From Clostridiales bacterium (GTDB lineage Bacteria; Bacillota; Clostridia; Saccharofermentanales; Saccharofermentanaceae): 64,000 nucleotides of DNA. A program made the translations under genes and the position numbers. Positions 22,500 to 63,826 of this stretch are shown in pieces; within the stretch, counting starts at the first letter, position 1; each line of letters begins with the position of its first letter. The notes beneath the pieces are model-generated. The model was not told the DNA's origin and did no database searches. It saw only the letters and a program-made list of their open reading frames with translations. The stretch is from the NCBI GenBank assembly GCA_017513085.1, contig JAFWDK010000003.1, positions 32,001 through 96,000 of the forward strand, given 5' to 3'.

Positions 22500-22546
22500 G
22501 TTATCATTAGCTAACTTGCGATCGCTAACAGTTAGCTTTTGCTAAC
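22500..22546. promoter_or_regulatory. Two GTTAGC-N4-GCTAAC operators upstream of the ECF operon
   Basis: GTTATC-ATTA-GCTAAC (22500) and GTTAGC-TTTT-GCTAAC (22531), with an extra GCTAAC half-site between them. Confidence 0.85.
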
Positions 22547-22634
22547 CAATAATAAAATATAAGTAGAGAAAAATCCAGTAGTAATTGAACACTTTTTTAG
22601 ATTTGTTCAGTAAAATCGTCATATTTCACGAAAA

Positions 22635-24371
22635 TCATGTTCCGGATTGCAGTGTTACCATACGTGCATACATACCGTTTTCCGAAAGTAATTCATCATG
22701 ACTTCCCCGCTCTATGATATTTCCATCAGATACGACCAGTATCTGATCCGCATCTTTAATCGTCTTCAGGCGATGCGCAATGACCAGAAGCGTCTTATTC
22801 CGGCACAGTTCCGATATTGCTTCCTGAATCGCCCTTTCATTGTCAGCATCTACACTGGCCGTTGCCTCATCCAGAATAACGATCGGTGCATCTTTTAATA
22901 TACATCTGGCGATAGAGATACGCTGCTTCTCACCACCGGAAAGAGACGCTCCGCCCTCTCCGATCACAGTATCAAAGCCATCCGGAAGTGCCATGATGAA
23001 ATCGTAGCAGCGTGCTTTTCGGGCAGCTTCGTAAACTTCCTCTTTCGAAGCATCCGGGCGGGCCATCGCAATATTGTTATAGATCGTATCCTGGAAGAGA
23101 TACACACGCTGGAATACCATACTGATGTGATCCATCAGATCTCCCATCGGCACCTTCCTGATATCTTTCCCGTTCACCATGATCCTTCCTTCTCCGATAT
23201 CCCAGAACCGTGCAAGAAGCGAAGCGATCGTTGATTTGCCTCCTCCGGACGGGCCGACCAGAGCGCACATTTCGCCGTTTTTTACCTTGAAGGAGACATG
23301 CTTAAGTACATCTTTCTCAGTATATCCGAAAGTGACATCATCATATTCGATTGCCGCCACACTTCCATTTTCCGCGGATGCCTCCGAGAGCGTCTCTTTT
23401 CCGGTATCCGGCATTTCTTTTTCCGCAAAAAGCGCTTCGATGCGGTCCAGACTGGCAGAAGTAACTGTGAGACGTGCCATCTGGGAATAATAACTTTTGA
23501 CCGCACTGAAAAGGTCAAAGAGAAATAGTGCCATGCCGACCATATACACATTCGAGATCATTCCATTATGAAAAAGATAAGCACATGCAATAAGCACAAG
23601 CGAAGTACCGATTCCATATGTAAGATGCAGAGCTCTTGACCAGGGAGTGTAATCCACTTCAAATGCGATGCTCTCCTGACAGTTTTTCTCAAACTCATCC
23701 GTTAGTTTCTTTGAGTTTTCTCCCAGAAGATTATAGGTCTTAATGATTCCCATTCCTTCTGCAAAATCCAGCACTTCGTTGGTCAATGATTCGCTATACT
23801 CCTGCTTCTTGCGGGAATGCTCCATAGTATGACGGAGCATAAGATTTCCGACTACAAAGAAAACCAGCACGACAAGCAGAGACAAAAGCCCCAGCCGTAT
23901 GTCCATATAGAACATCATGAGGATCATCAGCGCCTGGGAAATAATGAAGGAGACCAATTCCGAAAGGACACCCATGCAGTTTTCTTCTATAAAGACCATA
24001 TCGGTGGATAAGATCGAACTGATCTTACCTATATTTCCTTCGGTGAAATACCCCATCGGTAGTTTTCTCAGATGGTCACCCAAACGGATACGCATATCCG
24101 CAAATACTTTATACCCGGCCGATGACTGAAGGATATTCGTCAGATGTTCGAATCCTGCCTGAAGGAGCACACTTGCAGCAAGAACGATACCGAAGATCAG
24201 GCAGGTCTTCTTATCCATGGTTCCTTCCATAAAATACTTGATCATCAGGAAACTCAGCATCAGCGGCATTTTCATCAGGCACCCTTTGAAAAAGGATGTT
24301 ATATAGGATGCCCGGATCGATTTTTTATACTTTCCCGTCATACGGATCAGTCGATGCATGATCTTGATCAT
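22635..24371 (-). CDS. YbtQ/IrtB-like ABC half-transporter (TMD+NBD)
   Basis: HLRKLPMGYF, GPSGGGKS, LSGGEKQR and DEATA motifs. Start overlaps the partner's stop (ATGA). Confidence 0.88.
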   Translation of the reverse strand: MIKIMHRLIRMTGKYKKSIRASYITSFFKGCLMKMPLMLSFLMIKYFMEGTMDKKTCLIFGIVLAASVLLQAGFEHLTNILQSSAGYKVFADMRIRLGDHLRKLPMGYFTEGNIGKISSILSTDMVFIEENCMGVLSELVSFIISQALMILMMFYMDIRLGLLSLLVVLVFFVVGNLMLRHTMEHSRKKQEYSESLTNEVLDFAEGMGIIKTYNLLGENSKKLTDEFEKNCQESIAFEVDYTPWSRALHLTYGIGTSLVLIACAYLFHNGMISNVYMVGMALFLFDLFSAVKSYYSQMARLTVTSASLDRIEALFAEKEMPDTGKETLSEASAENGSVAAIEYDDVTFGYTEKDVLKHVSFKVKNGEMCALVGPSGGGKSTIASLLARFWDIGEGRIMVNGKDIRKVPMGDLMDHISMVFQRVYLFQDTIYNNIAMARPDASKEEVYEAARKARCYDFIMALPDGFDTVIGEGGASLSGGEKQRISIARCILKDAPIVILDEATASVDADNERAIQEAISELCRNKTLLVIAHRLKTIKDADQILVVSDGNIIERGSHDELLSENGMYARMVTLQSGT

Positions 24372-26110
24372 ACGTTCTTTTCCTCCTTGATTCTCCATGT
24401 GCTGGCGCTCACCGAGGCGTCCCACAGATTTTTATACTCAGGACATGAGAGCAGAAGCGCTTCGTGGCGATCCGACGCAATACATTCACCATCTTTCATT
24501 ACACATATCGTATCGGCGTTCCTGATCGTAGATAAACGATGAGCAATGACCAGAACCGTTTTGTTCTTCATGATCTCATCGATCGCCCGATTCATCTTTT
24601 CTTCGTTTTCCGGATCCATAAATGCCGTAGCCTCATCCAGCACGATGATCGGAGCATTTTTCAAGATCGCTCGCGCAAGTGAGATCCTCTGCCGTTCTCC
24701 TCCGGACAACTGTTTTCCTCCATCACCGGCAAGAGTCTCAATACCATTTGGAAGTCTTTCCAGAAATTCATCACACTGCGCCCGTGATGCGGCTTCAAGC
24801 ACTTCTTCCTTGGTAGCTTCCGGATTTCCGATATGGATATTCTCATATAGAGAAGTATTGAAAAGAAACTGCTCCTGAGAAACAAATGCAACCTGATCAT
24901 TCAGTGCACGGAGCGACATATCCGTAATATCCTGTCCGCCGATCGAGATATGTCCCGAAGAAAGATCGTAGTAGTGGACCAGAAGTTTTGCCAGTGTGGA
25001 TTTACCGGACCCGGATTCACCAACCAGCGCGGTGGTCGTTCCCTGTTTTAATGAAAGAGAAACACCATGTAGCACTTCTTTCTCGTCATATCCGAAGTGT
25101 ATGTCTTCAAAGATTACATCGGAATTATTCCCGGTAAAATCCGATGTTCCTTCCTTCAGCGGCGGAAATTCCATCATCTTTTCCAGAGCATCGATCTTAA
25201 AGTTCAGCTGAGGAAACTTTCCCGCGAAGTTCAGTGCTTTTAGCACGGAAGGACCCACCGCAAACGACATGCAGATGACCAGGACCAGTTTATCCAGAGC
25301 GATCACCTCGTTGATGACCAGGAGAGATCCGACAGGCAGTATCAGAAGTGCCAGACACGGCAATACACTTGCATAGATCGCCATCCACGGCCAGCAGACT
25401 TTGTACCAGGCAAGCGTAAAGTCTCTGTAGCTTCTAACGACTTCTCCGAACCGTTTATAGGAGTCGCCGTCCTTATTAAACACTTTCACGACTTCCATTC
25501 CATTGACGTATTCGATGATCGTGTTGTTCATCTTCGTCGCGGATGCATAATAGTCGTTCATTTTCGACATGCCGGCTTTCATCATCATGCTCATGGCAAT
25601 CATTCCGACTATAAGTGGTACCAGAGACAGCAATCCTAATCTCCAATCCGCGACAAACATCAAAACCAGTATCAGAACCGGTATTGCCACATTCGCAATG
25701 CCTTCCGGGATTGCATGAGCCAGCAGAAGTTCGATCTGATCGATATCATCTGTAAACACTTTCTTGATCCGTCCGGTCCCCATATCCTGGATATGGCCGA
25801 GAGGCTGTTTTTCCAGTTTTCCTTGAAGAGATACACGAAGATTTTTCAGCGTGTGATAGGCACTGTAATGCGAAAATGACAGGCCCTGCGTGTATAACAC
25901 CGCGAAGAGGATCTTACAGACAGCAACTGCCGCCACCCGGTATAAAATATAGGAAGTACTGACGGATTCCCCACGGATCAGCGGGGAAATGATCTGAAAC
26001 ACAAAAAAATACGGAAGTACATTCGCAATGATACCCAGACTCATACAGATCACGGCCCAGATCGTGTACTTCTTGTATTTCCCGATATAGGGAGCAACTT
26101 TCTTAAACAT
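24368..26110 (-). CDS. YbtP/IrtA-like ABC half-transporter (TMD+NBD)
   Basis: AHAIPE, IEYVNGMEVVKVF, GESGSGKS and LSGGERQR motifs. Confidence 0.88.
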   Translation of the reverse strand: MFKKVAPYIGKYKKYTIWAVICMSLGIIANVLPYFFVFQIISPLIRGESVSTSYILYRVAAVAVCKILFAVLYTQGLSFSHYSAYHTLKNLRVSLQGKLEKQPLGHIQDMGTGRIKKVFTDDIDQIELLLAHAIPEGIANVAIPVLILVLMFVADWRLGLLSLVPLIVGMIAMSMMMKAGMSKMNDYYASATKMNNTIIEYVNGMEVVKVFNKDGDSYKRFGEVVRSYRDFTLAWYKVCWPWMAIYASVLPCLALLILPVGSLLVINEVIALDKLVLVICMSFAVGPSVLKALNFAGKFPQLNFKIDALEKMMEFPPLKEGTSDFTGNNSDVIFEDIHFGYDEKEVLHGVSLSLKQGTTTALVGESGSGKSTLAKLLVHYYDLSSGHISIGGQDITDMSLRALNDQVAFVSQEQFLFNTSLYENIHIGNPEATKEEVLEAASRAQCDEFLERLPNGIETLAGDGGKQLSGGERQRISLARAILKNAPIIVLDEATAFMDPENEEKMNRAIDEIMKNKTVLVIAHRLSTIRNADTICVMKDGECIASDRHEALLLSCPEYKNLWDASVSASTWRIKEEKNV

Positions 26111-26131: not shown

Positions 26132-26171
26132 ATAATCCACATAGTTAGCATTTGCTAACTATGTGGATTAT
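26132..26171. promoter_or_regulatory. Operator (26144-26159) inside a 40-bp palindrome
   Basis: ATAATCCACATAGTTAGCA-TT-TGCTAACTATGTGGATTAT; minus-strand TATAAT at 26172-26167. Confidence 0.85.
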
Positions 26172-26198: not shown

Positions 26199-27191
26199 TT
26201 ACAAATCGTTTTCTAACACTTTTCGCTCACGGTATTCTTTGGGACTCATTCCGAACCGTTCCCGGAAAGACTTGGAGAAATAACTCATATTGTTATACCC
26301 TGCACGTGTTGCGGCTTCAGAAACATTCATCCGGGTCTCGCAAAGAAGAGATGCCGCATACTCCAGCCGCATCTCCTGCACGTATGCATGCAGGGATGTA
26401 TCATACATCATCCGGAACAAACGGTTGAGCTTACTAAGACTCATGGCCAGGGACTTTGCGATATTCGGCGCGCTGTAGTCATCGTACGGGACCAGCTGGA
26501 TCTTCTCTCGGAGATGCTCGACCGAAAGACGGTCCTGAGGATCGATATATACTTCCTTTTTCACGTTTCCACTCTCTCCATTAACAATACCGAAAAGCAC
26601 CTGTGCCGTCAGTTCGATCATTTTTGTCTCCAGATAGACATCTTTAAACTCCGCATAGCGGTCGGCACTGTCGATCTCAGATAGGATCCTGAACATCTCC
26701 GGCGTAATACGTGTTTTCATTACCCGAGCAAAAACCAGCTTCTCGATCCGATCGCTCTCTCCCTTCGGAAAAAGCATATGAAGAAGTTCGGAAAAGCGCG
26801 ATGTTTTCATCTGCAGGCTACGGAACTGATAATGCCGTCCGCTGGGGTAAAACATAGAGGTGCCGATGTTATCATTCCTGTAGATACACACCTCCCCCCG
26901 TTTCATGATCACCTTCTGAAAACGTGGCGAGGCGGGATCCTCTCCCACCTGCCACTCGATATCCTGATTAAGATTGAATATGATCTGCACTTCATCCATC
27001 CCTGCATTATCACATTTCTTTGCGTCCGTATCCTTGGTAAAGGACAGATCCCAGCGGTAGTACAGGACATCATTCCTGGACTTTTCCTTCCGGATCTTCG
27101 CCGTGCCGATCTCCTCAGGAAACCCGGCCGCGCCATCCATATACTGATACAGTTCTTCCGTGCTGATCATGTTTTTTCTTTCTTTACTCAT
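26199..27191 (-). CDS. AraC family regulator (YbtA/PchR-like)
   Basis: C-terminal MNVSEAATRAGYNNMSYFSKSFRERFGMSPKEY; sits between two ABC pairs. Confidence 0.9.
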   Translation of the reverse strand: MSKERKNMISTEELYQYMDGAAGFPEEIGTAKIRKEKSRNDVLYYRWDLSFTKDTDAKKCDNAGMDEVQIIFNLNQDIEWQVGEDPASPRFQKVIMKRGEVCIYRNDNIGTSMFYPSGRHYQFRSLQMKTSRFSELLHMLFPKGESDRIEKLVFARVMKTRITPEMFRILSEIDSADRYAEFKDVYLETKMIELTAQVLFGIVNGESGNVKKEVYIDPQDRLSVEHLREKIQLVPYDDYSAPNIAKSLAMSLSKLNRLFRMMYDTSLHAYVQEMRLEYAASLLCETRMNVSEAATRAGYNNMSYFSKSFRERFGMSPKEYRERKVLENDL

Positions 27192-28927
27192 TACTCCATC
27201 TTCCAGTTCTGTGAAAGCATCTGCTGCTCTGTCATATGACGGTAGAGACTGTCTTTTCCCATCAATTCCGAAGGGGTTCCTTCTTCTGCGACGACACCGT
27301 CCTTCAGCACAACGATATGATCCGCATTAGCGATCGTACGCATACGGTGGGCGATAATCATTACGGTCTTATTCCTGATCAGGCGGGAAAGCGCTTCCTG
27401 GATCACTGTCTCATTTTCAGCATCGAGAGAGGCTGTCGCTTCATCGAGAAGAATGATCGGTGCATCCTTCAGAAAAGCTCTTGCGATAGAGATACGCTGA
27501 CGTTCTCCTCCGGAAAGTTCACTTCCGTTTTCTCCGATCCTTGTGTTGTATCCTTCCGGAAGGAGCGATACGAACTCTTCACAGTTGGCTAATCTCGCCG
27601 CTTCCTTTACTTCATCATCAGTTGCTCCTGCCTTACCGATGCGGATATTCTCCAATACACTGTTATTGAACAGCGTGACATCCTGGAACACAATGGAATA
27701 CTTCTGCAAAAGAGTCTCCGGATCAATACCGGAAATATCCGTGCCTCCCAATGTGATCTTACCTTCCGTCGGATCCCAGAAACGGGCTGCCAGTCGGGAG
27801 ATCGTCGTTTTTCCTCCACCTGAAGGACCGATCAATGCAGTCACCTCGCCCTGCTTGGCTGTAAAGCTTACATCCTTCAGGACCGTAGTATCATCCGAAT
27901 ACTGAAAACCTACATGATCGAAAGTAATATCATATCCGGTGTTCGACAGGTGATCCGTTCCAGTCTGGATCTTATGTGAAAGCACTTCATCCAGACGTTC
28001 ACTCTGGATTCCGATGGAAATGATCGCAGCAAAATTCTGTAGTGTGATCTGCATCGGATCGTAAAGCCGCGAAACCAGCATAAGGAACATAAAGAAGGTA
28101 AGTATCGATATACTTCCATCAGCAAACAGAGCTCCTCCAACCAAAGCCGTCGTTCCGATACCGAGTTTCAGGATAATGGCTGCGGAATTGACATATACGG
28201 CCATTTTCAGTTCAGTGAAAAGAGCCATTTTTTCCACTTTCCGGATCTTGTTCTCCAGGCCGTCCATATATTTTCCCTCCGCATTATTCGCGCGCAGGTC
28301 ACGGATCGATTCCAGGCACTCCTGGATCCCATCTGCCATATCCATTTTGATCGCTGTATTTTTCCGAATAGCTCTTTTTTCTGCACCGGAGCAACTGAGC
28401 ACGATCAGAAACGCTATCGGGATCACCCAGAAACTGGCAAGTGCCATACGCCAATCGAAGAAGAAGAAGAGACTGATTCCGACCAGACTTGTAGAAATGA
28501 GTGCGCCGATCAGTTCAGGGATCCAGTGACTGGAAGCTGTTTCGATCGATGCACAGTCTCCCATGATATTGGTGGTAAGATCCGCAATATTCTTCTTCCC
28601 GAAATACGATAGCGGCAATTTACGGAGCTTCTCGGCAAGAGCCGTTCTTCGTACTCCGCTTTCCCGATATGTAGATAAGAATGTGGCATTATACTGAAGA
28701 TAATTCGTAAAAGCAATCAGCGCGAGAATAACAGCGCTGGCTATTAAATAGATCCCCAGACGGTCACGGGAAAGATTATCTTCCAGAAGATCCTTAATAA
28801 GCATATAAAGCACACCCGAAGGCATCATCAGGCAGATATTGGTCAGCGCACAGAAAAAACATGCTTTCACCATATCTTTAGCGCCTTGTTCTGAAAGCGC
28901 ATATTTATGCATAAGTTTCTTTATCAT
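27191..28927 (-). CDS. YbtQ/IrtB-like ABC half-transporter
   Basis: LAEKLRKLPLSYF, GPSGGGKT and LSGGERQR motifs. Confidence 0.88.
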   Translation of the reverse strand: MIKKLMHKYALSEQGAKDMVKACFFCALTNICLMMPSGVLYMLIKDLLEDNLSRDRLGIYLIASAVILALIAFTNYLQYNATFLSTYRESGVRRTALAEKLRKLPLSYFGKKNIADLTTNIMGDCASIETASSHWIPELIGALISTSLVGISLFFFFDWRMALASFWVIPIAFLIVLSCSGAEKRAIRKNTAIKMDMADGIQECLESIRDLRANNAEGKYMDGLENKIRKVEKMALFTELKMAVYVNSAAIILKLGIGTTALVGGALFADGSISILTFFMFLMLVSRLYDPMQITLQNFAAIISIGIQSERLDEVLSHKIQTGTDHLSNTGYDITFDHVGFQYSDDTTVLKDVSFTAKQGEVTALIGPSGGGKTTISRLAARFWDPTEGKITLGGTDISGIDPETLLQKYSIVFQDVTLFNNSVLENIRIGKAGATDDEVKEAARLANCEEFVSLLPEGYNTRIGENGSELSGGERQRISIARAFLKDAPIILLDEATASLDAENETVIQEALSRLIRNKTVMIIAHRMRTIANADHIVVLKDGVVAEEGTPSELMGKDSLYRHMTEQQMLSQNWKME

Positions 28928-28929
28928 TA

Positions 28930-30693
28930 TTACGCACCTACCTTCCACTCGATCGACCGGCTGTATTCATCAACCATCCGCTTGTAGAGACCGTTCTGAT
29001 CCATAAGATCTTTATGTGATCCGCTTTCTACGAGTTTTCCATCTGACAAGACAAAGATCCTGTCCGCGTCGGCCACGGTACTAAGACGATGTGCGATCAT
29101 GATCACCGTCTTATCCTTTGCCATTTCCGAGAAAGCCGCCTGAACTTTCGTCTCGTTATCCGGATCGGCAAATGCCGTCGCCTCATCCAGGATCAGGATC
29201 GGCGCATCTTTTAAAACAGCACGGGCGATCGTGATCCGCTGCTGTTCTCCTCCGGACAGATAGGTTCCCTTTTCACCCAGGACCGTATGGATCCCGTTCG
29301 GAAGCTTATTGATAATGTCCATGCACTGTGCTTTTTCCAGAGCCGCCAGAACCTCTTCTTCCGTCGCGGAAGGTCTTCCCATCCGAACATTTTCCAGGAT
29401 CGATGTCTTGATCAACCGGCTGTCCTGAAATACGAAGGACACCTGTCCCATCAGTTCCGACGAAGACATATCCTTGATATCCACTCCACCGATAGATATC
29501 TTTCCCTCACTCACATCGAAAAAGCGCACCAGAAGCTCCGCCAAAGTAGTTTTTCCTGATCCTGAAGGTCCGACCAGTGCAACATGTTCGCCGGGACGGA
29601 TCGAAAGAGAAATATCCGATACCGCATCTCTTGTTGCATCTTTATAACGATAGCTGACATGTTCCAGTTCAATACTGCTGTCCTTGGCCGAAAGCGAGCT
29701 TTTCGATTCCGGGAGAGGTTCAATAGCCAGGACCTGATCTACACGTTTCAGCGCATCGATCAACGTCATTTCCGCTTCGCCGGAATAAGCAACCTTGGTT
29801 AGTGCTACCGTGATCAGCGGTGTTACGATAATGTAGTACATGACATTCAGAATATCGGCATTGGCGATACCGTCGCCTGTAATAAGAAAAGCCGATACAA
29901 CGAGTGCCAGAAAAATCGCATTTATACAAGTCATGAATGCGATCATGGGTTTACGGAGCATGAGCGTGTAGTCTGTCGACCATTTTCCGAAATCATCGAT
30001 CGATTTTTTAAATCTTGCAAATGAATGCACGGTCTGACCGAAAGTCTTCACTACCGGGATTCCGCGTACGTACTCTGTCGCTTCACTGCTCATGACCTCA
30101 AGGGCACTCTGATACTCCCCCATTTTTTCCTGCATGTTCTTCCCCATCATAGTCATCATAAAGCAAAACCCGATGATTGCAGGGATCACGCAGATCAGAC
30201 CGATCTTCCAGTTAAATGCAAGTACCAGAACAATAAGACCCACAGGGGTAACTGCCGCGACGGTCTTATCTGCCAGATTATGGGCGATATATGTTTCAGT
30301 TGCCGCGGTCGAATCATTCACGATACGGCGGATCTTGCCGGTTCCGTCTTCATCAAAAACGCCCAAAGGCAGCGTAATGATCCTTCTCATCAATGCGCTC
30401 CTCATATTCGCTTGAACCCGGAACGCAGCAATGTGCGTGCACAACAGCGCCAGAATATAAACCAGAAGCGCTCCGATGATCAATCCTACCGCCAGCCATG
30501 CGTGTCCGGTGATCAGATCCGGGTCCTGTCCCTCTACCGCGATCTTAATGATCTTCCATAACTCATAAAACGGGATAAGTGTCATAACACCACTAACACC
30601 GGCCAGGACCCTTCCTATCAGGATCAGGTTCTTGTGACCGCCTGCATAATTCCGTATGAGCTTCATGTGATCATACTTTTCAACTTTTGCCAA
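28930..30693 (-). CDS. YbtP/IrtA-like ABC half-transporter
   Basis: THIAAF, EYVRGIPVVKTF, GPSGSGKT and LSGGEQQR motifs; TTG start with RBS AGGAG. Confidence 0.88.
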   Translation of the reverse strand: MAKVEKYDHMKLIRNYAGGHKNLILIGRVLAGVSGVMTLIPFYELWKIIKIAVEGQDPDLITGHAWLAVGLIIGALLVYILALLCTHIAAFRVQANMRSALMRRIITLPLGVFDEDGTGKIRRIVNDSTAATETYIAHNLADKTVAAVTPVGLIVLVLAFNWKIGLICVIPAIIGFCFMMTMMGKNMQEKMGEYQSALEVMSSEATEYVRGIPVVKTFGQTVHSFARFKKSIDDFGKWSTDYTLMLRKPMIAFMTCINAIFLALVVSAFLITGDGIANADILNVMYYIIVTPLITVALTKVAYSGEAEMTLIDALKRVDQVLAIEPLPESKSSLSAKDSSIELEHVSYRYKDATRDAVSDISLSIRPGEHVALVGPSGSGKTTLAELLVRFFDVSEGKISIGGVDIKDMSSSELMGQVSFVFQDSRLIKTSILENVRMGRPSATEEEVLAALEKAQCMDIINKLPNGIHTVLGEKGTYLSGGEQQRITIARAVLKDAPILILDEATAFADPDNETKVQAAFSEMAKDKTVIMIAHRLSTVADADRIFVLSDGKLVESGSHKDLMDQNGLYKRMVDEYSRSIEWKVGA

Positions 30694-32237: not shown

Positions 32238-32266
32238 GATTCATCTCTCCTTTATATATGATTCTA

Positions 32267-53190: not shown

Positions 53191-54635
<1,445 letters not shown>

Positions 54636-55744: not shown

Positions 55745-55760
55745 TCATGTACCTTCTTTC

Positions 55761-56444
55761 TCAGATCTTGATGTGTTTAACGTTTCCGATCTGGTACTCG
55801 GTTCCTATCTTTGTTTCACCTAAACAATAGGAACAGAGCGCCATAGGCATCGGAAAACGAAGCGTCTCATTTTCGATTTCTCTCTCCATAGCCATATTCC
55901 GGATCGCCCGTGTGATCTCTGAAATTCCCTGTCCGGTAAGCCCGTTGACAGGAAATATCAGTGCTTTTGGATTAGAGGTCTCAACTCTTCGCATGAACAC
56001 TTCTCTTTCTGCTTGAGAAACGATATCTCCTTTTGTAATAAGTACAATATCTGCCAGTTTCAGGAGAGGACCGATTTTTCTGGGAGCCCGGATCCCGCTT
56101 AACTGATCGATCACACAGACAGCCAGCACATTTTTGATGTAGGGCGAGCATCGGTTACAAAGGCCGGCACTCTCCGTAAAAAGATAGTCCAGCTCTTCCT
56201 TTTTCCCCCAATCATAGACAGTCTGAATATTCGTGATGTAATAGTGATCGGGACAAAGTTCGGAAGAAAGTCCCTTTGCCGATGGGATCCCGGCCTGACT
56301 ATAGGTCTTGTCGTCTTCGGTCTGGAGGCAGTCAAACTTACACGCCCCCACTTTACTTCCATCTCTCATAATTTCTTTTAAGATCCGCGTCATAACGGTA
56401 GTTTTGCCCGTTGCAGGCGGTCCGGCAAAGGTTACCAGCTTCAT
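55761..56444 (-). CDS. HypB/UreG-like P-loop GTPase (putative metallochaperone)
   Basis: GPPATGKT, LCPDH, ESAGLCNRC, TKGD and a C-terminal CSYC. Confidence 0.85.
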   Translation of the reverse strand: MKLVTFAGPPATGKTTVMTRILKEIMRDGSKVGACKFDCLQTEDDKTYSQAGIPSAKGLSSELCPDHYYITNIQTVYDWGKKEELDYLFTESAGLCNRCSPYIKNVLAVCVIDQLSGIRAPRKIGPLLKLADIVLITKGDIVSQAEREVFMRRVETSNPKALIFPVNGLTGQGISEITRAIRNMAMEREIENETLRFPMPMALCSYCLGETKIGTEYQIGNVKHIKI

Positions 56445-57370
56445 TACTTTTCCTCCGTCATGATCTTCTTACATCTTTGGATTATTTCCGGAAGGGAGGG
56501 ATCATAGAGATACTCCCAGCCGACAAAGCGAAGACTTCCGGGAAGAGCATTGACAACACCTGTAATGTTACTCGGGAAGAATCCCTTCTCTCGGAAGATC
56601 CTGCCGGCCTCCTCGCGGCAGAGGATGGACATGAGCCTTTCCGCCTCGGGATTTGATTTTGAAGTTACAACAAGTGGCAGGATCGGTGCACCATCGCTGA
56701 ACCAGATGAGTTTCATTCCCTTCTGACGGGCTTTGATCTCCCCGAAGATCCAAGGCATCAGGTAGATATATGGTTTTTCGCCTTCGATTCCACCCGGCTT
56801 GATCATCTGTGAGGGATGCACGATCGCACAGATATTCTTTCTTAATCGTCTGATTCCCTCGTCTCCCGCAACTTGATGAATATATGTCAGAATGATCCCG
56901 TCAAACATGTGGCCGTCATCCGGAAATGCAATACTGTTTTCAAACTCACCCGAAAGCAGGTCAGAAAAAGCCTTCGGTTCACTTCTTCCCTTCGACTGAT
57001 CGGTATCCACGACCATGACCAGAGGAATGCACGAATAGATATCAAACATTCCTTTCGGATCAGAAAAGGAAGCAAACGCCGGATTCCCGAGAAGTGTTTC
57101 TCCTGATGCATGAAATCCTTTTTCTTTTATGACAGGATGATTGACGAGACCTTCGATACCTGTCCCCATGAAAACATCCGGATCACACTCTTTAAAGATC
57201 TTATCGACCCAGGATAAACCGAACTCCGCTAATGCGATGTTATATTCTTTCCGGTCAGAGATATACTCATCCAGATAATCCTGAAAAGGAAGCTGCACCA
57301 CACATGGAACACGTCCGACCAGTTTCGCTTCTTTATTCTCTGCTGTGTAATGAAGTTCTTCTTCTCTCAC
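56444..57370 (-). CDS. Substrate-binding-fold protein without a signal peptide
   Basis: VPC, HPSQM and WFSDGA motifs; GTG start with RBS GGGAGG; no hydrophobic leader. Confidence 0.7.
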   Translation of the reverse strand: MREEELHYTAENKEAKLVGRVPCVVQLPFQDYLDEYISDRKEYNIALAEFGLSWVDKIFKECDPDVFMGTGIEGLVNHPVIKEKGFHASGETLLGNPAFASFSDPKGMFDIYSCIPLVMVVDTDQSKGRSEPKAFSDLLSGEFENSIAFPDDGHMFDGIILTYIHQVAGDEGIRRLRKNICAIVHPSQMIKPGGIEGEKPYIYLMPWIFGEIKARQKGMKLIWFSDGAPILPLVVTSKSNPEAERLMSILCREEAGRIFREKGFFPSNITGVVNALPGSLRFVGWEYLYDPSLPEIIQRCKKIMTEEK

Positions 57371-58208
57371 GAAATCGATTCCTCCCTTCGACAACTGTCA
57401 CCTGTTCGCTTATGTCCCGACTGAGTACATCAATGGGTAGTACACATACATGTCTTTTCTCTTCGATCATAAAATCACGGATCCGCACATCAACATCAAA
57501 AGCCCTGCAAAGATTTTCTTCGGAAATCACTTCGTTTGCATTTCCGAATGAATTGCTTCCATCACGATTCAGGATCAGGGCTTTATCGGATATAGCCAGC
57601 GCGTGCTCCGGATAGTGAGTATTTACAATGGATGAGATGCCCCGTTCTCTGCACAGCTTATGGATCGTATTGATGACGATCAGCTGGTTTTTAAAGTCGA
57701 GATTCGACTCCGGTTCATCCAGTATCAGAAGTTCAGGATCTGTAGCTAATGCTCTGGCAATAAGGACCATCTGCAGTTCACCACCGGAGATCTCATTACA
57801 CAGCTTCCCGCGAAGCCGGCTCATCCCGACCATATCCAGACATTCTTCCGCAAAGCGGTAGTCTTTCTTCGTCGGCTGCGCCAGTATTCCCAGGTGGGCA
57901 TTTCGTCCGAGAAGAACCATCTCTTCTGTGGTATAGGAGAATGCGGAGCGCTTTGCCTGCGGCACATATCCTATCTTCTTCCAGATCTCCTGGTTCTTCC
58001 ATTCGTGCCATGGTTTACCATTGATATATGTACTGCCGGCACGCCATGGAAGGAAGCCGAGCGTGCATTTCAGCAGAGTCGTCTTGCCGACACCATTTGA
58101 TCCCAGGATCGAAAGGATCTCTCCCTCTTTGACAGAGAAAGAAAGGTTTTTAAGGATGTCAGGTCCTTTCTTATATCCGAATGATGCATCTTTCACCTCA
58201 AAGATCAT
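57333..58208 (-). CDS. Iron-chelate/cobalamin ABC ATPase (FepC/BtuD-like)
   Basis: GSNGVGKT, GYVPQ, ISGGELQ and DEPESNLD motifs. Confidence 0.9.
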   Translation of the reverse strand: MIFEVKDASFGYKKGPDILKNLSFSVKEGEILSILGSNGVGKTTLLKCTLGFLPWRAGSTYINGKPWHEWKNQEIWKKIGYVPQAKRSAFSYTTEEMVLLGRNAHLGILAQPTKKDYRFAEECLDMVGMSRLRGKLCNEISGGELQMVLIARALATDPELLILDEPESNLDFKNQLIVINTIHKLCRERGISSIVNTHYPEHALAISDKALILNRDGSNSFGNANEVISEENLCRAFDVDVRIRDFMIEEKRHVCVLPIDVLSRDISEQVTVVEGRNRFRERRRTSLHSRE

Positions 58209-59203
58209 GTTTTTACACCTCCTGTCCGACGAAGCAGAATAATAAATACCGGGGCGCCGATAATCGCAGTAAGGATTGAGATCGGCAGTTCCGCAGCGGT
58301 TGCAGATCTCGCAACTGTATCAATAAGCAGAAGGTACGTCGCTCCCAGTCCGATGCTGGCCGGAATAACATATTTATTATTGTTTCCGAACATCATACGG
58401 GAGATATGCGGGATCAAAATACCGATCCATCCGACCTTTCCGCACATGGCGATGACAGATCCGGTAATCATGGTAGAGGATACGATCGTAAGTCCCCTCA
58501 TCAGTTTCAGGTTGATTCCCATTGCCCTTGCCTCATCATCGTTTAATGAAAGAACATTCAGTTTCCATCTAAGACAGAAGAGAATGATGATACCGATAAG
58601 CATCGGGATCGTTCCGATCCACAGTTTTTGGAAACTGGTTCCGGATAAACTGCCCATAAGCCAGTATGTGATTTCCGGAAGTACATCCTGCGGATCCGCT
58701 ACATACTTTATAAGAGAAACCAGAGCTTCAAAAAGTGAGCTGATCACCATACCGGATAGGATCAGCATGACAAGCGAAGACTCACCTTTCACACGGCTGA
58801 TCATGTACACCAGCCATACGGATAAGAGACCCATAGCAAAAGCCGTTCCCTGAATTCCAAGAGATGGAAGCCGCAGCATAATTCCGAGCGTCGCCCCAAA
58901 AGAAGCGCCCGTGGCGACTCCTAAAGTATCAGGAGTCGCCAGGGGGTTGGAAAACATACTCTGAAAGGCTGCACCGGCAACGGCCAGACCCGCGCCTGCG
59001 ATAATCGCCAGGATCGATCTGGGAAGACGGATCTTATACAGTACCGTCTTCACATTCGGATCATCGACCTTCATGCCCAGGAGGACTTTTACGCAGTCTT
59101 TGATGGGGATCGAGTACCGGCCCACACCTAACGCGATCAGAAAAGATGCGACAAGTGCAATAGTAATGCCGATCACCCAGATTAATTCTGTTTTCTTTTT
59201 CAC
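58205..59203 (-). CDS. FecCD/BtuC family permease
   Basis: IRLPR, NPLATPDTLGV, WLMGSL and GWIGILIPH motifs. Confidence 0.93.
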   Translation of the reverse strand: MKKKTELIWVIGITIALVASFLIALGVGRYSIPIKDCVKVLLGMKVDDPNVKTVLYKIRLPRSILAIIAGAGLAVAGAAFQSMFSNPLATPDTLGVATGASFGATLGIMLRLPSLGIQGTAFAMGLLSVWLVYMISRVKGESSLVMLILSGMVISSLFEALVSLIKYVADPQDVLPEITYWLMGSLSGTSFQKLWIGTIPMLIGIIILFCLRWKLNVLSLNDDEARAMGINLKLMRGLTIVSSTMITGSVIAMCGKVGWIGILIPHISRMMFGNNNKYVIPASIGLGATYLLLIDTVARSATAAELPISILTAIIGAPVFIILLRRTGGVKT

Positions 59204-59224
59204 GTGTTCACCTTTGTCCCCGGA

Positions 59225-60481
59225 TCAGAGGCCTCTTGCCGCATCACGTGACGGAATGAACATCATATCCAGCTGCTCGTCAGAAAGATCATATCCGCAC
59301 ATTTCCTTATAGTATTCCTTTGCGATCTTACGGATATCCGTATCCTTGAAAAGATCCGGATAGATCACAGAAGCCATCCACTGCATAGTAACCGGAGAAT
59401 CTCCACCCGGTGTATAGCTTCTATAAAGACCAAGAGGCATCTTATAGACACGCTTGTTCTTTACTGCATTGATCGTGCTCCAATCATCTGTACCGATAGC
59501 ATTGTTATAGAGATCTTCCGGCTGTGTGCCGCAGAAATTGGTGATAATGATAATATCCGGATTCCATTCATATACCTGTTCCATCGATATCTTCAGGATA
59601 GAACCATCCGGCACTTCGCTGGCAACATTGTATGCATTTACGGACTCACACCACCACTGGCCGAAGAAGTTCACACCGGAGGCCACCATCGCCGCATCTG
59701 TGTACTTGAAGAGAACCAGGACGCGTGCCTTCTGATCATCCGGAATGTCCTTTGTTTTTTCGATGATATCCGCATGGACAGCATCACTCTTCTCCATAGC
59801 CTTCTTTGCAAAATCCGAACCGCCGAAGATTTGGTCGAGAAGGTCGATCCAATGTTCATAGGTCTCGATAATGTCATACTTCCAGGCAGAAGCAGATGTA
59901 GTAACTGCCGGGATGCCGGCTTCACGGATCGCTTTTGCCTGTTCCTGTCCGACACCAATGACAATATCCGGCTTAAGGATCAGGAGTTCCTCCAGATTTA
60001 CCTCATCACCACTGATAAAAGCTGTATTTGCGTTTAAGATCTCCGGGTAGATCTGTCCAAGAAGGCCGTTTTCCGCAGCACTCATAGATACCGGATGGAT
60101 ACCCACGATCTTTTCCGCAGAACCAAGATACTCTGCAATAACAGATGCCAGCGGATAGAAAGACCCTACTGCAATTCGATTGATCGTATTAGGAACCTCA
60201 ACGGTATCTCCGGCATGGTCGACAACAGTATGTGTGCCATTGGGATCACCAAACGGGTTCTCGGAATCTTTGCTTTCTCCTTTGACCTCTGTGCTGGTCT
60301 CGGAAGACTCCTCCGAAGAACTTTCGGAAACACTCTCCGACGTCTCCGCACTGGTCTCCTCGATCGTTTGCGTATCAGAAGTCGACGAAGCGCTCGTTTC
60401 CTCATCTTTCTTTGCACAGGCCGACAGGGCGCAAAGTGCAATAGCTACCGACATTAAGCCGGCAAGAAGTTTTTTCTTCAT
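59225..60481 (-). CDS. Iron-chelate/cobalamin-type binding lipoprotein
   Basis: Lipobox LSAC; S/T/E-rich linker; VVDHAG, NLEELLILKPD, SMEQVYEWNPD and AVKNKRVY motifs. Confidence 0.9.
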   Translation of the reverse strand: MKKKLLAGLMSVAIALCALSACAKKDEETSASSTSDTQTIEETSAETSESVSESSSEESSETSTEVKGESKDSENPFGDPNGTHTVVDHAGDTVEVPNTINRIAVGSFYPLASVIAEYLGSAEKIVGIHPVSMSAAENGLLGQIYPEILNANTAFISGDEVNLEELLILKPDIVIGVGQEQAKAIREAGIPAVTTSASAWKYDIIETYEHWIDLLDQIFGGSDFAKKAMEKSDAVHADIIEKTKDIPDDQKARVLVLFKYTDAAMVASGVNFFGQWWCESVNAYNVASEVPDGSILKISMEQVYEWNPDIIIITNFCGTQPEDLYNNAIGTDDWSTINAVKNKRVYKMPLGLYRSYTPGGDSPVTMQWMASVIYPDLFKDTDIRKIAKEYYKEMCGYDLSDEQLDMMFIPSRDAARGL

Positions 60482-60557
60482 AATAATCCTCTTTCTACTT
60501 ACTTTAGTAAGAACTATGTATATTTTTAAGCCGGTCGTTTAAAAGCGCCGAACGGGC

Positions 60558-61697
60558 TTACAGATCATGTTCAAGCCATTTATTTTCATCCAGGTAATTC
60601 CAGTAACTGTTTTTCCCTACACGGCTTGAGACGGAGTACTGCGGAAAAGGTATCTGATCTTTTACCCCTCCCGAAAACTCTATAAATAACGGGTCCGCGA
60701 TCAGAAGATCCTTCTGATCCTTCACTACGGAAAGGATCGTATCTTCATCACTTAGATAAGTGGATACATCATCTTCATGTTCGATCGTATATAGCTTGCA
60801 GTCTATATTCTCTGACCGCAGGAAGTTTCGTATCGAGTCCCCGATCACCGAGTCAGCAATAATGACTCCGGATCGTCGGGAAGTCTTAGGACTAAGCACC
60901 TTAAACACAGCGGTCTTCCCTTCGCGGACCAGTTCAAGATACGAACTCATCTGTTTCTGTCCTATCGGGAAATTCACGATATAAGGTGTCTGATACTTTT
61001 TTTCCATAGCTTTGGCGATCGCAAGTCCCGCCTGGTTCCAAACCAGGTTCAAAGTGACTTTCTCCGGATACTGGTAAAACAAAAGAGAGCCGTACATGCC
61101 CTGTTCCTGCATCAGACAGATACCATTCTCCGTAAGTCTGCCGCAAAGGCTGTCATACACTTCCTGATGCATATCCAGCGGGGAGATGCCCGGAATAGCT
61201 ACTGTTCCTCCATCTTTCCAGGGTTCGCGCTTCTCCGGGTTTTTCTCGTAATAGTCTGTGAGTGCAAAGTAAGCCATAAGAATACCGTCATAGTAAGAAC
61301 CTTTAATTCCCGCGGTCGGAAATCCGAAACAAGGGATACCGGTTCTATTCTCGACCGCTCTGGCGACTCCGTTAAAATCAAAACCGATGACATTCGGCAC
61401 CGGACTTCCGACAATAGCTATAAACTTCGGATGTCGTTCCAAAGCATTCTTTGTGATCTTACCGATCAGTTTCTCATCGTCACCGAGGATAGCATCCACC
61501 TTTCGAAGGCTTGTGCAATACACCATAGAATGACTGCCGTACCATCTCGGCTCATCGAAATGGGTATAATTTCCCGTGCAGCCTGCCGCATCATGAATGC
61601 AGATCATACCGCCGAGATCAAAAAGCGCGGAGCATACCCCTGAATAATCTCCTGCAAAAGGAGGAAGATACATACAAACTTTATGTTTTTTATTCAT
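60558..61697 (-). CDS. Nitrogenase component 1-like subunit (NifK/BchB-like)
   Basis: PFAGDYSGVCSAL, IHDAAGCTG, ILGDDEKL and IVGSPVP..IGFD motifs. Confidence 0.85.
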   Translation of the reverse strand: MNKKHKVCMYLPPFAGDYSGVCSALFDLGGMICIHDAAGCTGNYTHFDEPRWYGSHSMVYCTSLRKVDAILGDDEKLIGKITKNALERHPKFIAIVGSPVPNVIGFDFNGVARAVENRTGIPCFGFPTAGIKGSYYDGILMAYFALTDYYEKNPEKREPWKDGGTVAIPGISPLDMHQEVYDSLCGRLTENGICLMQEQGMYGSLLFYQYPEKVTLNLVWNQAGLAIAKAMEKKYQTPYIVNFPIGQKQMSSYLELVREGKTAVFKVLSPKTSRRSGVIIADSVIGDSIRNFLRSENIDCKLYTIEHEDDVSTYLSDEDTILSVVKDQKDLLIADPLFIEFSGGVKDQIPFPQYSVSSRVGKNSYWNYLDENKWLEHDL

Positions 61698-62947
61698 CAG
61701 ACGATTCCTCCGTATTCATCGATCAGTTTTCGGATATCCGCTTTTTCTTTCATCGCGAACCGCATAGTATCCATAAGGATCCTTATTCCCTGATATCCGA
61801 GCATTCCTTCATCAGAAGAGATATCTGCAACATATCGCGCATTGCTTAAGTAGGCAGCTTCTTCGCCTACTGCCAAAGCTATTGTTTCCGTTTCCGAACG
61901 GAAAACCGAATCCGGATGATCCCCCTGAATGATCTCGACCTGCGGATACTCGTTAAGGAGGATATCGGCATACTTCTGATCGGGTCCCACCACTTCAGAA
62001 AGATAGACACGCGTTACACGGAAACCGTATTCCAGAAGTGCTACGGCCAGAGATAGGGGAAATACGGTTGCACTGTCAGAAACAAAGACCGGCACATCCG
62101 CAACTTCTTCTCTGGCATAATAGATCGCCTGTTCACATAAGGAACGGTCGTCTTTAATCTTTTCAGAAAGATCTTCTCCCAAAAAGTCAGACAGATCCTG
62201 ATACTCTTTAGTGACAGTATCAATATCATAGGATATCGGCATTTCCACGTGTGTAGCGCCGGTTCTTTTCTCCAGACGTCTCAGCGCATATCTCACAAAT
62301 GGTTTTATCACTATAGATCTTCCGGAGCGGGACATCTCCTCATACTCTGAAAAAGTACTGCACGAGGAAATCTGGCGGACCATATGGCCATTTTGATTCA
62401 GGACCCGGATCAGCTCGTTATCTTCCGGGATCCCGACGAAGTTTCCCCAGAGCGTTACACCATCATCCGTCTTCTCCCAATCGGGTAGCACACTTAACAT
62501 CGCATCAAACGTCGTGACTGCCGGTGGCATCTTGGTGGAAGATGCAATTGGATTCATATGTCCGGCACGGAAAAGGATATCCGGATATCTTTTCCCGAGG
62601 ATCGCGGTCACTTTCTCCATATCCGTACCGATAAAATCATCCAGGCAGGAAACATAAATAAAGAGAAGACGGATGTCCTTTTCCGTTCTTTCCAGAAGCT
62701 CATCCACGCCATCCAGGATCTCCTGATCGTATCCCTCCACGATGTCGCTCTGGTCAATATAAAGATAAGAAATACGGTCTTTATAGTGATGCTGGATCGC
62801 GCCGAGCGCCCCATGCCGGAAGCACGCTGACGGGCAGACAAACAAAAGATAAGATCCGGGGATAAGTGCAGCGACACGGATGATTCCCCATCCGTCATGC
62901 GCAGGATTGCAGTAACAAAGGTTCGGTTCAAATCGCATGTTCATCAC
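61697..62947 (-). CDS. Nitrogenase component 1-like subunit (NifD/BchN-like)
   Basis: [14 protein letters not shown] and [11 protein letters not shown] motifs; coupled to the nifH-like gene. Confidence 0.85.
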
Positions 62948-63756
62948 CTCCGAAGCAGATAAATCAATTCTTCGGTATACGGATCTTTTTGTATGGACGT
63001 ATCATCGCCATGGCAGAGACTGATTATTCTATCTGCCAATTTTTCATAATCCTTAGCGATCGACGATCGGGGAAACTTCTCGATAACAGTCTTTCCCTCC
63101 TGTTCCGCCGCCTGCACCATCTTACTTCTATGGATATGTGAAATAACCGGAAGGTCGTGTTCTCTGGCAAAGCGGGTAACAAGATCCTTTTCATTCTCAA
63201 CAAGCCGCTCATTTAAAATCAGGCCACGTACACGGGCGTATCCGCGCTCTTTGAAATTGTCTACGGCACGGGAAATATTATCTGCGGCAAAAAGAGCCAT
63301 CATCTCACCGGAAGTAACGATAAAGACATGTTCCGCATATCCGTCACGGATCGGCATGGCAAAACCGCCACAGACTACATCGCCGAGAACATCATATAGA
63401 ACGATATCCGGGGCGTATTTTTCAAAAGCACCGAGCTCTTCCAGTTTCTGGAGAGCCGATATGATACCAAGACCAGCACATCCGATACCGGGCGTCGGTC
63501 CACCCGATTCTACACAGAGGACACCGTTATATCCATCGTGAACGAGATCAGAAAGCTCGACGTCTTCACCCTTCTCCTTGATCATTCCGAGGACCGTGCT
63601 GATCTTCTCGCCCCCCATCAGGTTTTTAGTAGAGTCCGCTTTCGGATCGCAACCGATCTGCATGACTTTATAACTGCGTGAAAGAGCGGCTGCAAGATTC
63701 GACGTTGTGGTTGATTTGCCTATTCCGCCTTTACCATAAATAGCTATCTTTAACAA
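62944..63756 (-). CDS. NifH-like Fe protein (Group IV / Nfl type)
   Basis: [31 protein letters not shown] and [14 protein letters not shown] motifs; both [4Fe-4S] cysteines present. Confidence 0.93.
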
Positions 63757-63810
63757 TTTTCTACCCCTGTATTGCCTTTTCTATAAAATTGAATATAATA
63801 ATCTCAATCG

Positions 63811-63826
63811 GTTAGCCACTGCTAAC
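63811..63826. promoter_or_regulatory. GTTAGC-N4-GCTAAC operator upstream of the nitrogenase-like operon
   Basis: GTTAGC-CACT-GCTAAC. Confidence 0.85.

Follow-up and report, generated by a model that had tools for sequence, protein, structure and literature searches.

A recurrent GTTAGC-N4-GCTAAC palindrome in Clostridia, the probable operator of a minimal DtxR-like iron repressor

The stretch of DNA considered here (in the following: the window) comprises 64,000 nucleotides (nt) of a Clostridiales bacterium (GenBank assembly GCA_017513085.1, contig JAFWDK010000003.1, positions 32,001 to 96,000 of the forward strand) and contains, spread over 41 kb, a series of sites of the palindrome GTTAGC-N4-GCTAAC. 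This palindrome is most probably the operator of a minimal iron repressor of the DtxR family, about 120-130 amino acids (aa) long, which is widespread in Clostridia and encoded outside the window. The reading is built on the following observations: the sites themselves, their non-random number, their placement, their conservation near iron genes and DtxR-like genes, and the ligand signature of the DtxR-like proteins.

The palindrome in the window and in other genomes

Nine perfect and four near-perfect sites, listed before in a reading of the sequence alone (in the following: the sequence-only reading), were all recovered: the perfect ones at 22531, 26144, 30716, 34645, 43160, 50757, 52997, 54583 and 63811, those with one mismatch at 22500, 34721 and 51580, and one with two mismatches at 42578. 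The chance expectation of 0.004 per 64 kb given there agrees with our calculation (64000/4^12), and none of 100 dinucleotide-preserving shuffles of the window contained any perfect match. With up to two mismatches allowed, 14 matches were found against 0.94 expected, a number reached in 0 of 100 shuffles; the additional match, absent from the earlier list, has one mismatch, lies at 6274 within the open reading frame (ORF) of the type III glutamine synthetase, and is probably due to chance. The matches with exactly three mismatches (seven in the window) were rejected as a class, their number being at chance level (21 matches with up to three mismatches where 13.2 would be expected, a number attained in 5 of 100 shuffles).

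When start codons are placed at ATG, GTG or TTG having a Shine-Dalgarno (SD) sequence before them, 12 of the 13 listed sites are situated 20-96 nt upstream of such a start codon, and the earlier description of all sites as intergenic holds; with longest-ORF starts instead, the sites at 26144, 43160 and 54583 would touch ORF ends. The sequences around the 16-mers of the window are unrelated to each other, so that the motif is not a mobile or dispersed repeat. Following both sites 34721 and 51580, an identical 12-mer, CGTTGTGCAAAT, is found (34737-34748 and 51597-51608), for which two exact copies in the window stand against 0.24 expected (2 of 100 shuffles reached two) and which is absent from all 119 motif-bearing loci described below; it may represent a small duplicated promoter module or the site of a second factor.

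Concerning other genomes, a collection of reference genomes (596 Gb) was scanned for one fully palindromic variant of the 16-mer, GTTAGCATATGCTAAC (ATAT spacer), which occurs in at least 119 loci (about 140 being expected over all taxa at uniform composition), 80 of them with up to 10 kb of flanking sequence per side. According to our reading of the record titles, 112 of the 119 loci listed belong to Bacillota, five to other phyla (L014, L053, L065, L103 and L106), and two are unclassified. The Bacillota among the loci listed are overwhelmingly Clostridia (Oscillospiraceae, Lachnospiraceae, Ruminococcus, Christensenellaceae, and metagenome-assembled genomes (MAGs) of Eubacteriales), and Veillonella and Erysipelotrichaceae are also represented. 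Cultured carriers named in the loci include Agathobaculum hominis, Christensenella tenuis, Youxingia wuxianensis, Acutalibacter sp. and Butyrivibrio sp. Between the window and the loci, blastn gave matches of 65-71% identity only, which indicates that the genome to which the window belongs is not among the fetched loci.

Together, the loci comprise 1,158,427 bases with 176 perfect sites, the spacer being the selected ATAT in 122 of them and a different one in 54, where about 0.07 would be expected. The 80 flanked loci contain 126 sites, of which 90 are situated between ORFs, 19 in the first 120 nt of an ORF with the longest possible start, ten in the last 10 nt of an ORF, and seven well inside ORFs, called ORFs covering 90% of the bases of these loci. 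Site pairs not more than 120 bp apart number 47, with a centre-to-centre distance of 24-26 bp in ten and of 33-35 bp in 11; the difference between these classes is close to one helical turn, a spacing that points to two dimers bound in phase. When the base counts are symmetrised, the motif gains one position per side and reads a/g-GTTAGC-AWWT-GCTAAC-t/c. In locus L014 (7949-10016), from a gammaproteobacterial MAG of the Succinivibrionaceae, two perfect sites flank a radical-SAM gene and a gene for a TonB-dependent receptor; the box, and perhaps the regulator too, would accordingly extend beyond Bacillota, a binning error being likewise possible.

The 120 ORFs starting beside a site in the flanked loci were translated and scanned against Pfam, with the following result (ORFs out of 120):

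FeoA or FeoB: 26 (15 FeoA, 12 FeoB_N, one fusion)
FeoB-associated: 1
DUF3793: 13
DtxR family (PF01325 and PF02742): 7
ZIP: 5
Exporter-fold ATP-binding cassette (ABC) proteins: 4
Flavodoxin: 3
DUF2325: 3
Large FMN_bind surface proteins: 2
FTR1, FecCD, ferritin, TonB-dependent receptor, Trep_Strep, Mn-catalase, Fe/Mn superoxide dismutase (SOD), AhpC and iPGM: 1 each
Assorted unrelated families: about 20
No family: 26

This content is that of an iron-limitation regulon. DtxR is the only family of transcription factors recurring beside the sites; others are represented by one AraC, one MerR and one HTH_3 protein, whereas neither TetR nor Fur proteins occur.

Homologues of window genes exhibit the same association. 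A site lies within 400 nt upstream of 15 of the 24 FeoB homologues in the loci and within 4 kb of the other nine; four of the six ZIP homologues are site-linked, as are homologues of the ABC pairs of the window, which resemble YbtPQ and IrtAB, in other Clostridia (L006, L013, L044, L051 and L074), and a homologue of the MptD/Trep_Strep S component has a site directly upstream in L043. Concerning FeoA, the proximal site precedes the beginning of the FeoA domain by 15-81 nt in 14 of 15 genes (distances taken from Pfam coordinates), the corresponding distance for feoA of the window being 20 nt; a tblastn search with the window FeoA against the loci gave nothing better than E = 0.047.

The second most common site-flanking family, DUF3793, is found in L002, L005, L009, L012, L022, L023, L027, L049, L060, L061, L064, L070 and L075. 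In L027 its gene is divergent from a flavodoxin gene, and in L061 both genes flank sites about 4 kb apart. This uncharacterised family is apparently part of the core response of Clostridia to iron starvation, and DUF2325 appears to be a similar case.

A DtxR-like candidate regulator and the alternatives

A profile constructed from seven site-flanking DtxR-like proteins was run over the six-frame translations of all loci and of the window. Of the 80 flanked loci, 13 gave a DtxR-like gene (E <= 6e-22) and L062 a single weak match. Ten of the 13 genes have a perfect site before their reading frame, with its centre at a distance of 12-188 nt, mostly within the intergenic region shared by a divergent dtxR-like/feoA pair.

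The family is large, with at least 8000 clusters at 90% identity and E <= 1e-10 among the candidates scored, and bears the automatic names 'metal-dependent transcriptional regulator' (NCBI) and 'Mn-dependent DtxR family transcriptional regulator' (JGI). The best 120 homologues are 119-137 aa long, which leaves no room for a third (SH3-like) domain. Its matches in the PDB are MntR (1e-11; 2h09, 6kta), DtxR (3e-11) and IdeR (1e-9). In the alignment to DtxR, ESGEMYLE falls on DTTEMYLR and EDACKIEH on DEACRWEH, while the recognition helix SKPSVSRA falls on SGPTVSQT, with Ser and Pro kept and Gln43 replaced by Arg in 130 of 133 aligned rows. Ser37, Pro39 and Gln43 of DtxR are residues that contact DNA, and the conservation of S, P and R at these positions (130-132 of the 133 rows, i.e., 13 locus-derived proteins, one of them duplicating the reference, and 120 homologues) matches the invariance of the half-site.

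Concerning the primary metal site, the equivalents of Cys102, Glu105 and His106 are invariant in all 133 rows, and that of Met10 is Met in 128 of 133 rows and in eight of the ten site-adjacent proteins; the five exceptions possess Asp (L006, L074, L079) or Asn (L015, L043). According to the accessible part of PMC11672702, M10 and C102 may make the primary site prefer Fe(II) to Mn(II), MntR having Asp/Asn and Glu at these places, and the SH3 domain is not present in all members of the DtxR family. As far as aligned residues can tell, the Met/Cys ligand signature of the clostridial proteins thus favours Fe over Mn. Two of the proteins with Asp at the position of Met10 (L006:3053-3595 and L074:2700-3200) are more divergent paralogues, which have kept Cys102, lie 3-7 kb from the sites beside ABC pairs, have no site directly upstream, and may constitute a separate (Mn?) sensor subfamily.

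The proposed mechanism would be as follows. The regulator, composed of a winged-helix domain and a dimerisation/metal domain without SH3, would take up Fe(II) at its primary site (the equivalents of Met10, Cys102, Glu105 and His106) and bind as one dimer per palindrome; being situated 20-96 nt upstream of start codons, the bound dimer would block the adjacent promoter. About ten units of the window would thereby be repressed, namely feoAB-gpmA, three YbtPQ/IrtAB-like ABC pairs, the MptD-type transporter of the energy-coupling factor (ECF) type, the AraC-led cluster with MacB-type and TroA-type systems, xylA, eno, the NifH-like/FecCD operon, and a divergent pair encoding a membrane protein and a hydrolase. 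When iron is scarce, the apo-protein would leave the DNA, such that these units are derepressed. In this scheme we infer which protein occupies the sites, which metal it senses, in which direction it regulates, and that this genome encodes it. A Fur-independent, DtxR-like repressor for Fe or Mn had been suggested by the sequence-only reading, and is supported by the iron genes neighbouring the sites, by the DtxR genes (7 of 120) and by the Met/Cys signature in other genomes.

A number of points weigh against an iron-dependent DtxR-like repressor acting in the window. No DtxR-like frame was found in it by the profile, in agreement with the earlier statement that no cognate regulator is evident there; the loci elsewhere were chosen by the motif itself, such that the link between DtxR-like genes and sites is not an independent sample. 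The taxonomic skew among the matches listed could partly reflect the order of the scan, a bias of which the spacer, placement and pairing results are independent. Two of the ten site-adjacent proteins lack Met10 (Asn in L015, Asp in L079). Furthermore, the auxiliary site has lost ligands: the His79 equivalent is His in 132 of 133 rows, but that of Glu83 is Thr/Ser and that of His98 Ala/Ser/Val/Thr, so that activation may differ from that of DtxR/IdeR. The ZIP and TroA-type transporters of the regulon would fit Mn or Zn too. Homologues of eno, xylA, gpmA and the NifH-like genes were not found in the sampled loci, so that their membership in the regulon is supported by the window only. Finally, the orphan site at 52997 is followed by no ORF preceded by a ribosome-binding site on either strand, and a target gene for it was not found.

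The geometry of repression belongs to the same side of the balance. Promoter-like hexamers occur in the window at chance frequency (16 against 19.7 and 18 against 20.9 expected), and repressor geometry therefore rests mainly on the closeness of the sites to start codons. The overlap of sites with the -10 region or start claimed in the sequence-only reading could be checked in part: TTGACG-17-TAAGAT stops 5 nt before site 51580 (xylA), TTAGCA-18-TATAAT overlaps site 43160, and TAAACA-17-TACAAT overlaps site 42578, whereas the promoter-like sequence at 52961 (see below) was not called by the scan. As proof of geometry, the promoter and terminator scans were both rejected, the promoter matches being at chance level and several of the 'terminators' being the palindromes themselves.

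The main rival, to which we assign a rather small probability, is that the same DtxR-like protein senses Mn(II), or Mn and Fe alike, as do MntR/TroR, in which case the sites would serve a manganese or general divalent-metal response. Such a role would agree with the 'Mn-dependent' name given to the relatives by JGI, with the best PDB E-values, in which MntR stands just ahead of DtxR, with a two-domain build like that of MntR, and with the ZIP and TroA/ZnuA-type transporters, the Mn-catalase and the SOD among the site-linked genes; moreover, DtxR itself responds in vitro to several metals (accessible part of PMC11672702). However, the equivalents of Met10 and Cys102 are kept, where MntR has Asp/Asn and Glu, and the dominant targets are feoAB, flavodoxin/DUF3793, ferritin, FTR1, FecCD and the TonB receptor. 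Judging from the conflict with the Met/Cys signature and with the feo and flavodoxin targets, the JGI label is probably wrong for this clade.

Somewhat less probable still is binding of the palindrome by a different, unlinked regulator, e.g., of the Fur, Rrf2 or MarR type, the DtxR-like gene being a mere target beside feoAB. A transcription-factor gene adjoining a site is indeed an indirect link, and 67 of the 80 flanked loci contain no DtxR-like gene within about 10 kb; however, no other factor family recurs among the site-flanking ORFs (see the counts above), half-site and spacing are those of a single unit of the DtxR box (see below), and no Fur box was found in the window. The sequence-only reading, from which the E. 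coli-type consensus (GATAATGATAATCATTATC-like) was taken, had noted that the palindrome does not match the Fur box; in the whole window, no match to this consensus exists with up to three mismatches allowed. Resemblances of the motif to a CRP/FNR-type 5-N4-5 box and to a SlyA/MarR-type TTAGC half-site were considered and rejected, as no such gene recurs beside the sites.

That a local TetR- or AraC-family protein binds the palindrome independently of metal and controls the neighbouring ABC transporters, we regard as very improbable. The window encodes two paralogous TetR proteins (34% identity, similar helix-turn-helix (HTH) regions), each gene being situated just upstream of a site-preceded ABC pair, and AraC genes are embedded in two site-linked clusters; a local TetR as binder had been named beforehand as the refuting case. 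This case is left unsupported by the 120 site-flanking ORFs elsewhere, with no TetR and a single AraC gene among them; furthermore, the two TetR homologues present in the loci have no site upstream, the palindrome precedes feoAB in many genomes with no TetR gene nearby, and the two AraC proteins of the window are alike only in their C-terminal HTH (28% over 127 aa).

Hardly any weight is left for palindromes that are structural and no protein operators (RNA hairpins or terminators, repeats like repetitive extragenic palindromes, recombination or uptake signals): a terminator scan does flag four hairpins with T-rich tails (26132-26171, 43160-43175, 52993-53016 and 54579-54602), and site 52997 lies between convergent genes, but the arms are invariant around a variable loop and show no covariation as would a hairpin selected for structure, a 6-bp stem is weak, the flanks of the window sites are unconserved, the sites are situated upstream, not downstream, of genes of one functional class across more than 100 genomes, and Rfam (whole window, gathering thresholds) gave no match.

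Units behind the sites in the window

From 18.8 kb on, nearly all genes of the window are on the minus strand. The sites and the units behind them are as follows, distances being those from the site to the start codon:

Sites 22500-22515 (one mismatch) and 22531-22546 (perfect), 21 and 52 nt from ATG 22478: ECF-type transporter operon, 18858-22478, minus strand, with MptD/Trep_Strep S component, CbiQ-type T component, double ATPase and an unknown 226-aa protein (Pfam, NCBIfam)
Site 26144-26159 (perfect), 33 nt from ATG 26110: ABC half-transporter pair 1 of exporter fold, 22635-26110, minus strand (Pfam ABC_membrane and ABC_tran)
Site 30716-30731 (perfect), 22 nt from TTG 30693: ABC half-transporter pair 2, then AraC-family regulator (26199-27191), 26199-30693, minus strand
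Sites 34645-34660 (perfect) and 34721-34736 (one mismatch), 20 and 96 nt from the feoA ATG 34624: feoA (34400-34624) and feoB, followed by gpmA (cofactor-dependent phosphoglycerate mutase, 31491-32237) and TetR-family gene (30779-31426), which may form one transcript, 30779-34624, minus strand
Site 42578-42593 (two mismatches, weak), 42 nt from ATG 42535: AraC-led cluster, 34776-42535, minus strand, with AraC regulator, MacB/FtsX-type ABC system, 105-aa membrane protein, TroA/ZnuA-type metal ABC importer and 210-aa lipoprotein-like protein
Site 43160-43175 (perfect), in a divergent intergenic region, 35 nt from ATG 43124 (minus) and 57 nt from ATG 43233 (plus): divergent pair, 42624-44117, of a 166-aa membrane protein (42624-43124, minus strand) and a BAAT_C/dienelactone-hydrolase-like protein (43233-44117, plus strand)
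Site 50757-50772 (perfect), 69-72 nt from start 50687/50684: ABC half-transporter pair 3, then MacB/FtsX-type ABC system, 44101-50687, minus strand (Pfam)
Site 51580-51595 (one mismatch), between divergent genes, 40 nt from the xylA ATG 51636 and 150 nt from the TetR ATG 51429: TetR-family gene (50815-51429, minus strand) and xylose isomerase gene xylA (51636-52964, plus strand; TIGR02630, 661 bits), 50815-52964
Site 52997-53012 (perfect), orphan: between convergent xylA and eno
Site 54583-54598 (perfect), 75 or 93 nt from the candidate ATGs 54507/54489: enolase gene eno, 53191-54507, minus strand (Pfam Enolase_N/C)
Site 63811-63826 (perfect), 54 nt from TTG 63756: nine-gene NifH-like cluster, 54746-63756, minus strand, with NifH-like ATPase, two nitrogenase component-1-like proteins, Peripla_BP_2/FecCD/ATPase importer, SBP_bac_6 protein, CobW/HypB-like GTPase and an extra ABC ATPase

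The TroA/ZnuA-type importer of the AraC-led cluster consists of substrate-binding protein, ATPase and ABC-3 permease, and the spacing of the genes suggests that the cluster 34776-42535 is one operon; the same is suggested by spacing for the NifH-like cluster 54746-63756. The 166-aa membrane protein belongs to no known family, and a search of a protein atlas gave unnamed clusters only. Concerning the NifH-like ATPase, a score of 334 bits was obtained with both the CfbC and the NifH model, under the cut-offs of both. The cluster combines it with a haem/siderophore-type Peripla_BP_2/FecCD importer behind an iron box and has no homologues in the sampled loci; a literature search for a NifH-like cluster of this kind found nothing relevant.

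Regulators encoded in the window comprise the two TetR paralogues, the two AraC proteins and, in its first 18 kb, an ANTAR-domain protein, whereas no gene of the Fur, DtxR or MarR family was found there; a scan for tRNA genes in the window was likewise negative. These first 18 kb contain nitrogen-assimilation and housekeeping genes and no credible site. The nitrogen-assimilation cluster at 4037-12233 (ANTAR-domain regulator, type III glutamine synthetase, ammonium transporter fused to a P-II domain, asparagine synthase and CTP synthase) is without a credible iron box. Its CTP synthase shares 95% and 90% identity with proteins named 'Clostridiales bacterium' (MAG), 80% with one of 'Clostridia bacterium' and 76% with one of 'Oscillibacter sp.', in accordance with an uncultured member of the Clostridia as source. 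Upstream of a GNAT-ZIP gene pair, the three-mismatch match 14294-14309 (GTTACTATTATCTAAC) is only a candidate weak operator, its class being at chance level; for ZIP homologues with a site elsewhere, see above.

A perfect palindrome of 40 bp (26132-26171; ATAATCCACATA-site-TATGTGGATTAT), with site 26144 in its middle, is situated between the stop codon of the AraC gene and the start codon of ABC pair 1; it was flagged as a hairpin of 18 pairs and could be a terminator, an attenuator, or a composite operator for a second protein. At the orphan site, TTGACA-17-TATAAA is readable at 52961-52989 (plus strand), the site beginning 7 nt after it. Downstream of the site follow a strong hairpin (53029-53076; CCCUCCC/GGGAGGG stem and U-rich tail) and then the terminator hairpin of eno (around 53125-53170). 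The folding z-score here is -7.7 on both strands, and Rfam at E <= 1 gave nothing credible for 52900-53300. Orphan site, promoter-like sequence and hairpin together could mark the gene of a small RNA repressed by iron, a candidate only, as both hairpins may equally be no more than the terminators of the convergent xylA and eno.

The cofactor-dependent mutase encoded by gpmA needs no metal, and in L055 a metal-dependent iPGM carries the site, which suggests, as a speculation, swapping of enzymes. A much wider picture, which we consider doubtful as a whole, can be drawn from here: a DtxR without SH3 and with a single metal site might serve the dominant gut Clostridia (Oscillospiraceae, Lachnospiraceae, Christensenellaceae and relatives) as their master sensor of Fe(II), in the role of Fur, acting on a single-dimer operator and governing here a 41-kb iron island with a swap of metal-dependent enzymes (gpmA, eno, xylA), a nitrogenase-like reductase together with a FecCD-type importer that would free iron anaerobically from an imported chelate or tetrapyrrole, and an iron-repressed small RNA at 52996-53085.

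How iron is sensed by the abundant butyrate producers among the gut Clostridia is poorly described. For Faecalibacterium duncaniae, iron-repressed feo genes and a co-induced flavodoxin were reported in 2024 (PMC10781979), in a publication whose accessible text does not contain the word 'repressor' and names no iron regulator. With a searchable box of 16 bp and a candidate regulator, iron regulons of uncultured Clostridia would become readable from metagenome assemblies; the automatic label 'Mn-dependent' of this protein family could be corrected, and DUF3793, DUF2325, YbtPQ/IrtAB-like ABC pairs, MptD-type ECF transporters and the nitrogenase-like operon would be nominated as candidates for the response to iron starvation.

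Comparison with known systems

The motif, written as GTTAGC-N4-GCTAAC, TTAGC-N4-GCTAA, TTAGCATATGCTAA or GTTAGCATATGCTAAC, was found in no paper by a literature search with RegPrecise, subscription journals and bioRxiv supplements outside its scope, and a search for a GTTAGC/GCTAAC operator yielded unrelated or classical DtxR papers only. No paper on a DtxR-like iron regulon or on this box in Clostridia was found, as far as the listings and the beginnings of abstracts tell.

The organization of the box is most similar to that of the corynebacterial DtxR box, the consensus of which is given as 5'-TTAGGTTAG(G/C)CTAACCTAA-3' (19 bp) in the accessible part of PMC1382209. Divided into units of 14 bp, positions 1-14 of this consensus read TTAGG-TTAG-SCTAA and positions 6-19 TTAGS-CTAA-CCTAA, such that, in our own reading, the DtxR box would consist of two imperfect TTAGS-N4-SCTAA palindromes offset by 5 bp. 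This fits the crystal structures of DtxR, in which two dimers are bound on opposite faces of the DNA; the PDB entries 1c0w, 1f5t and 1u8r, listed among the matches, we take to be such DNA structures of the family. Going by the letters of both boxes, (G)TTAGC-N4-GCTAA(C) would be exactly one such unit, with the same half-site and the same spacing within the dimer, used singly; the earlier remark that its TTAG...CTAA core is DtxR-like can be made more specific in this manner.

With DtxR (Corynebacterium) and IdeR (Mycobacterium, Saccharopolyspora), the clostridial protein shares the Pfam domains PF01325 and PF02742, the primary-site ligands Met10, Cys102, Glu105 and His106, the TTAGS half-site with a 4-bp spacer within the unit, and a regulon of iron uptake and storage plus some genes of central metabolism; among the site-linked genes are feoAB, flavodoxin, ferritin, FTR1, FecCD, the TonB receptor and YbtP/IrtA-like ABC pairs. 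Despite this general similarity, there are differences: the clostridial protein is without the SH3-like domain, does not have the auxiliary ligands E83 and H98, and carries Arg in its recognition helix where DtxR has Gln43. Its operator is a single palindrome of 16-18 bp, whereas the full double unit of 19 bp is absent; further dimers would apparently bind at separate sites spaced by 24-26 or 33-35 bp. MntR (Bacillus subtilis, E. coli), a two-domain Mn(II) sensor, is similar in size and two-domain build and gives the best PDB matches, but has Asp/Asn and Glu where the clostridial family has Met and Cys, and its targets are Mn transporters, not feoAB and flavodoxin. The Fur regulons of Clostridioides difficile and Bacillus are functional analogues, with Fe(II)-dependent repression of feo, of siderophore and haem uptake and of flavodoxin, whereas protein family and box are unrelated and Fur proteins account for 0 of the 120 site-flanking ORFs. 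Sub-regulators of the AraC type under an iron master regulator are exemplified by Btr, YbtA and PchR.

Concerning the transporters, the subunit encoded at 28930-30693 matches, among bacterial half-transporters in the PDB, YbtP (6p6i_A, 4.5e-99), IrtA (7e-95) and YbtQ (6e-80) better than MsbA (8e-72), and by sequence comparison the three ABC pairs of the window appear to be most similar to the siderophore importers YbtP/YbtQ and IrtA rather than to MsbA. Like YbtPQ (Yersinia, uropathogenic E. coli) and IrtAB (Mycobacterium), they would form heterodimers controlled by an iron regulator; siderophore importers of exporter fold such as IrtAB are under the control of IdeR, and YbtPQ has the AraC gene YbtA adjacent, the ABC pairs of the window being likewise situated near AraC genes. 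However, no siderophore-interaction or reductase domain was seen in the Pfam scan of the window. The ECF transporter finds a counterpart in LhaSTA, the haem ECF transporter (S, T, A) of Staphylococcus lugdunensis, which is preceded by an iron-regulator box as well and is induced by iron limitation (accessible part of PMC7299338), LhaSTA being, however, controlled by Fur.

A metal-loaded repressor of the DtxR family on a palindromic box is a textbook mechanism, the kind of which is well known. The traits that set the present case apart are the single-unit operator, the single metal site, the missing SH3 domain, the low-GC hosts, and the dense cluster of about ten units within 41 kb.

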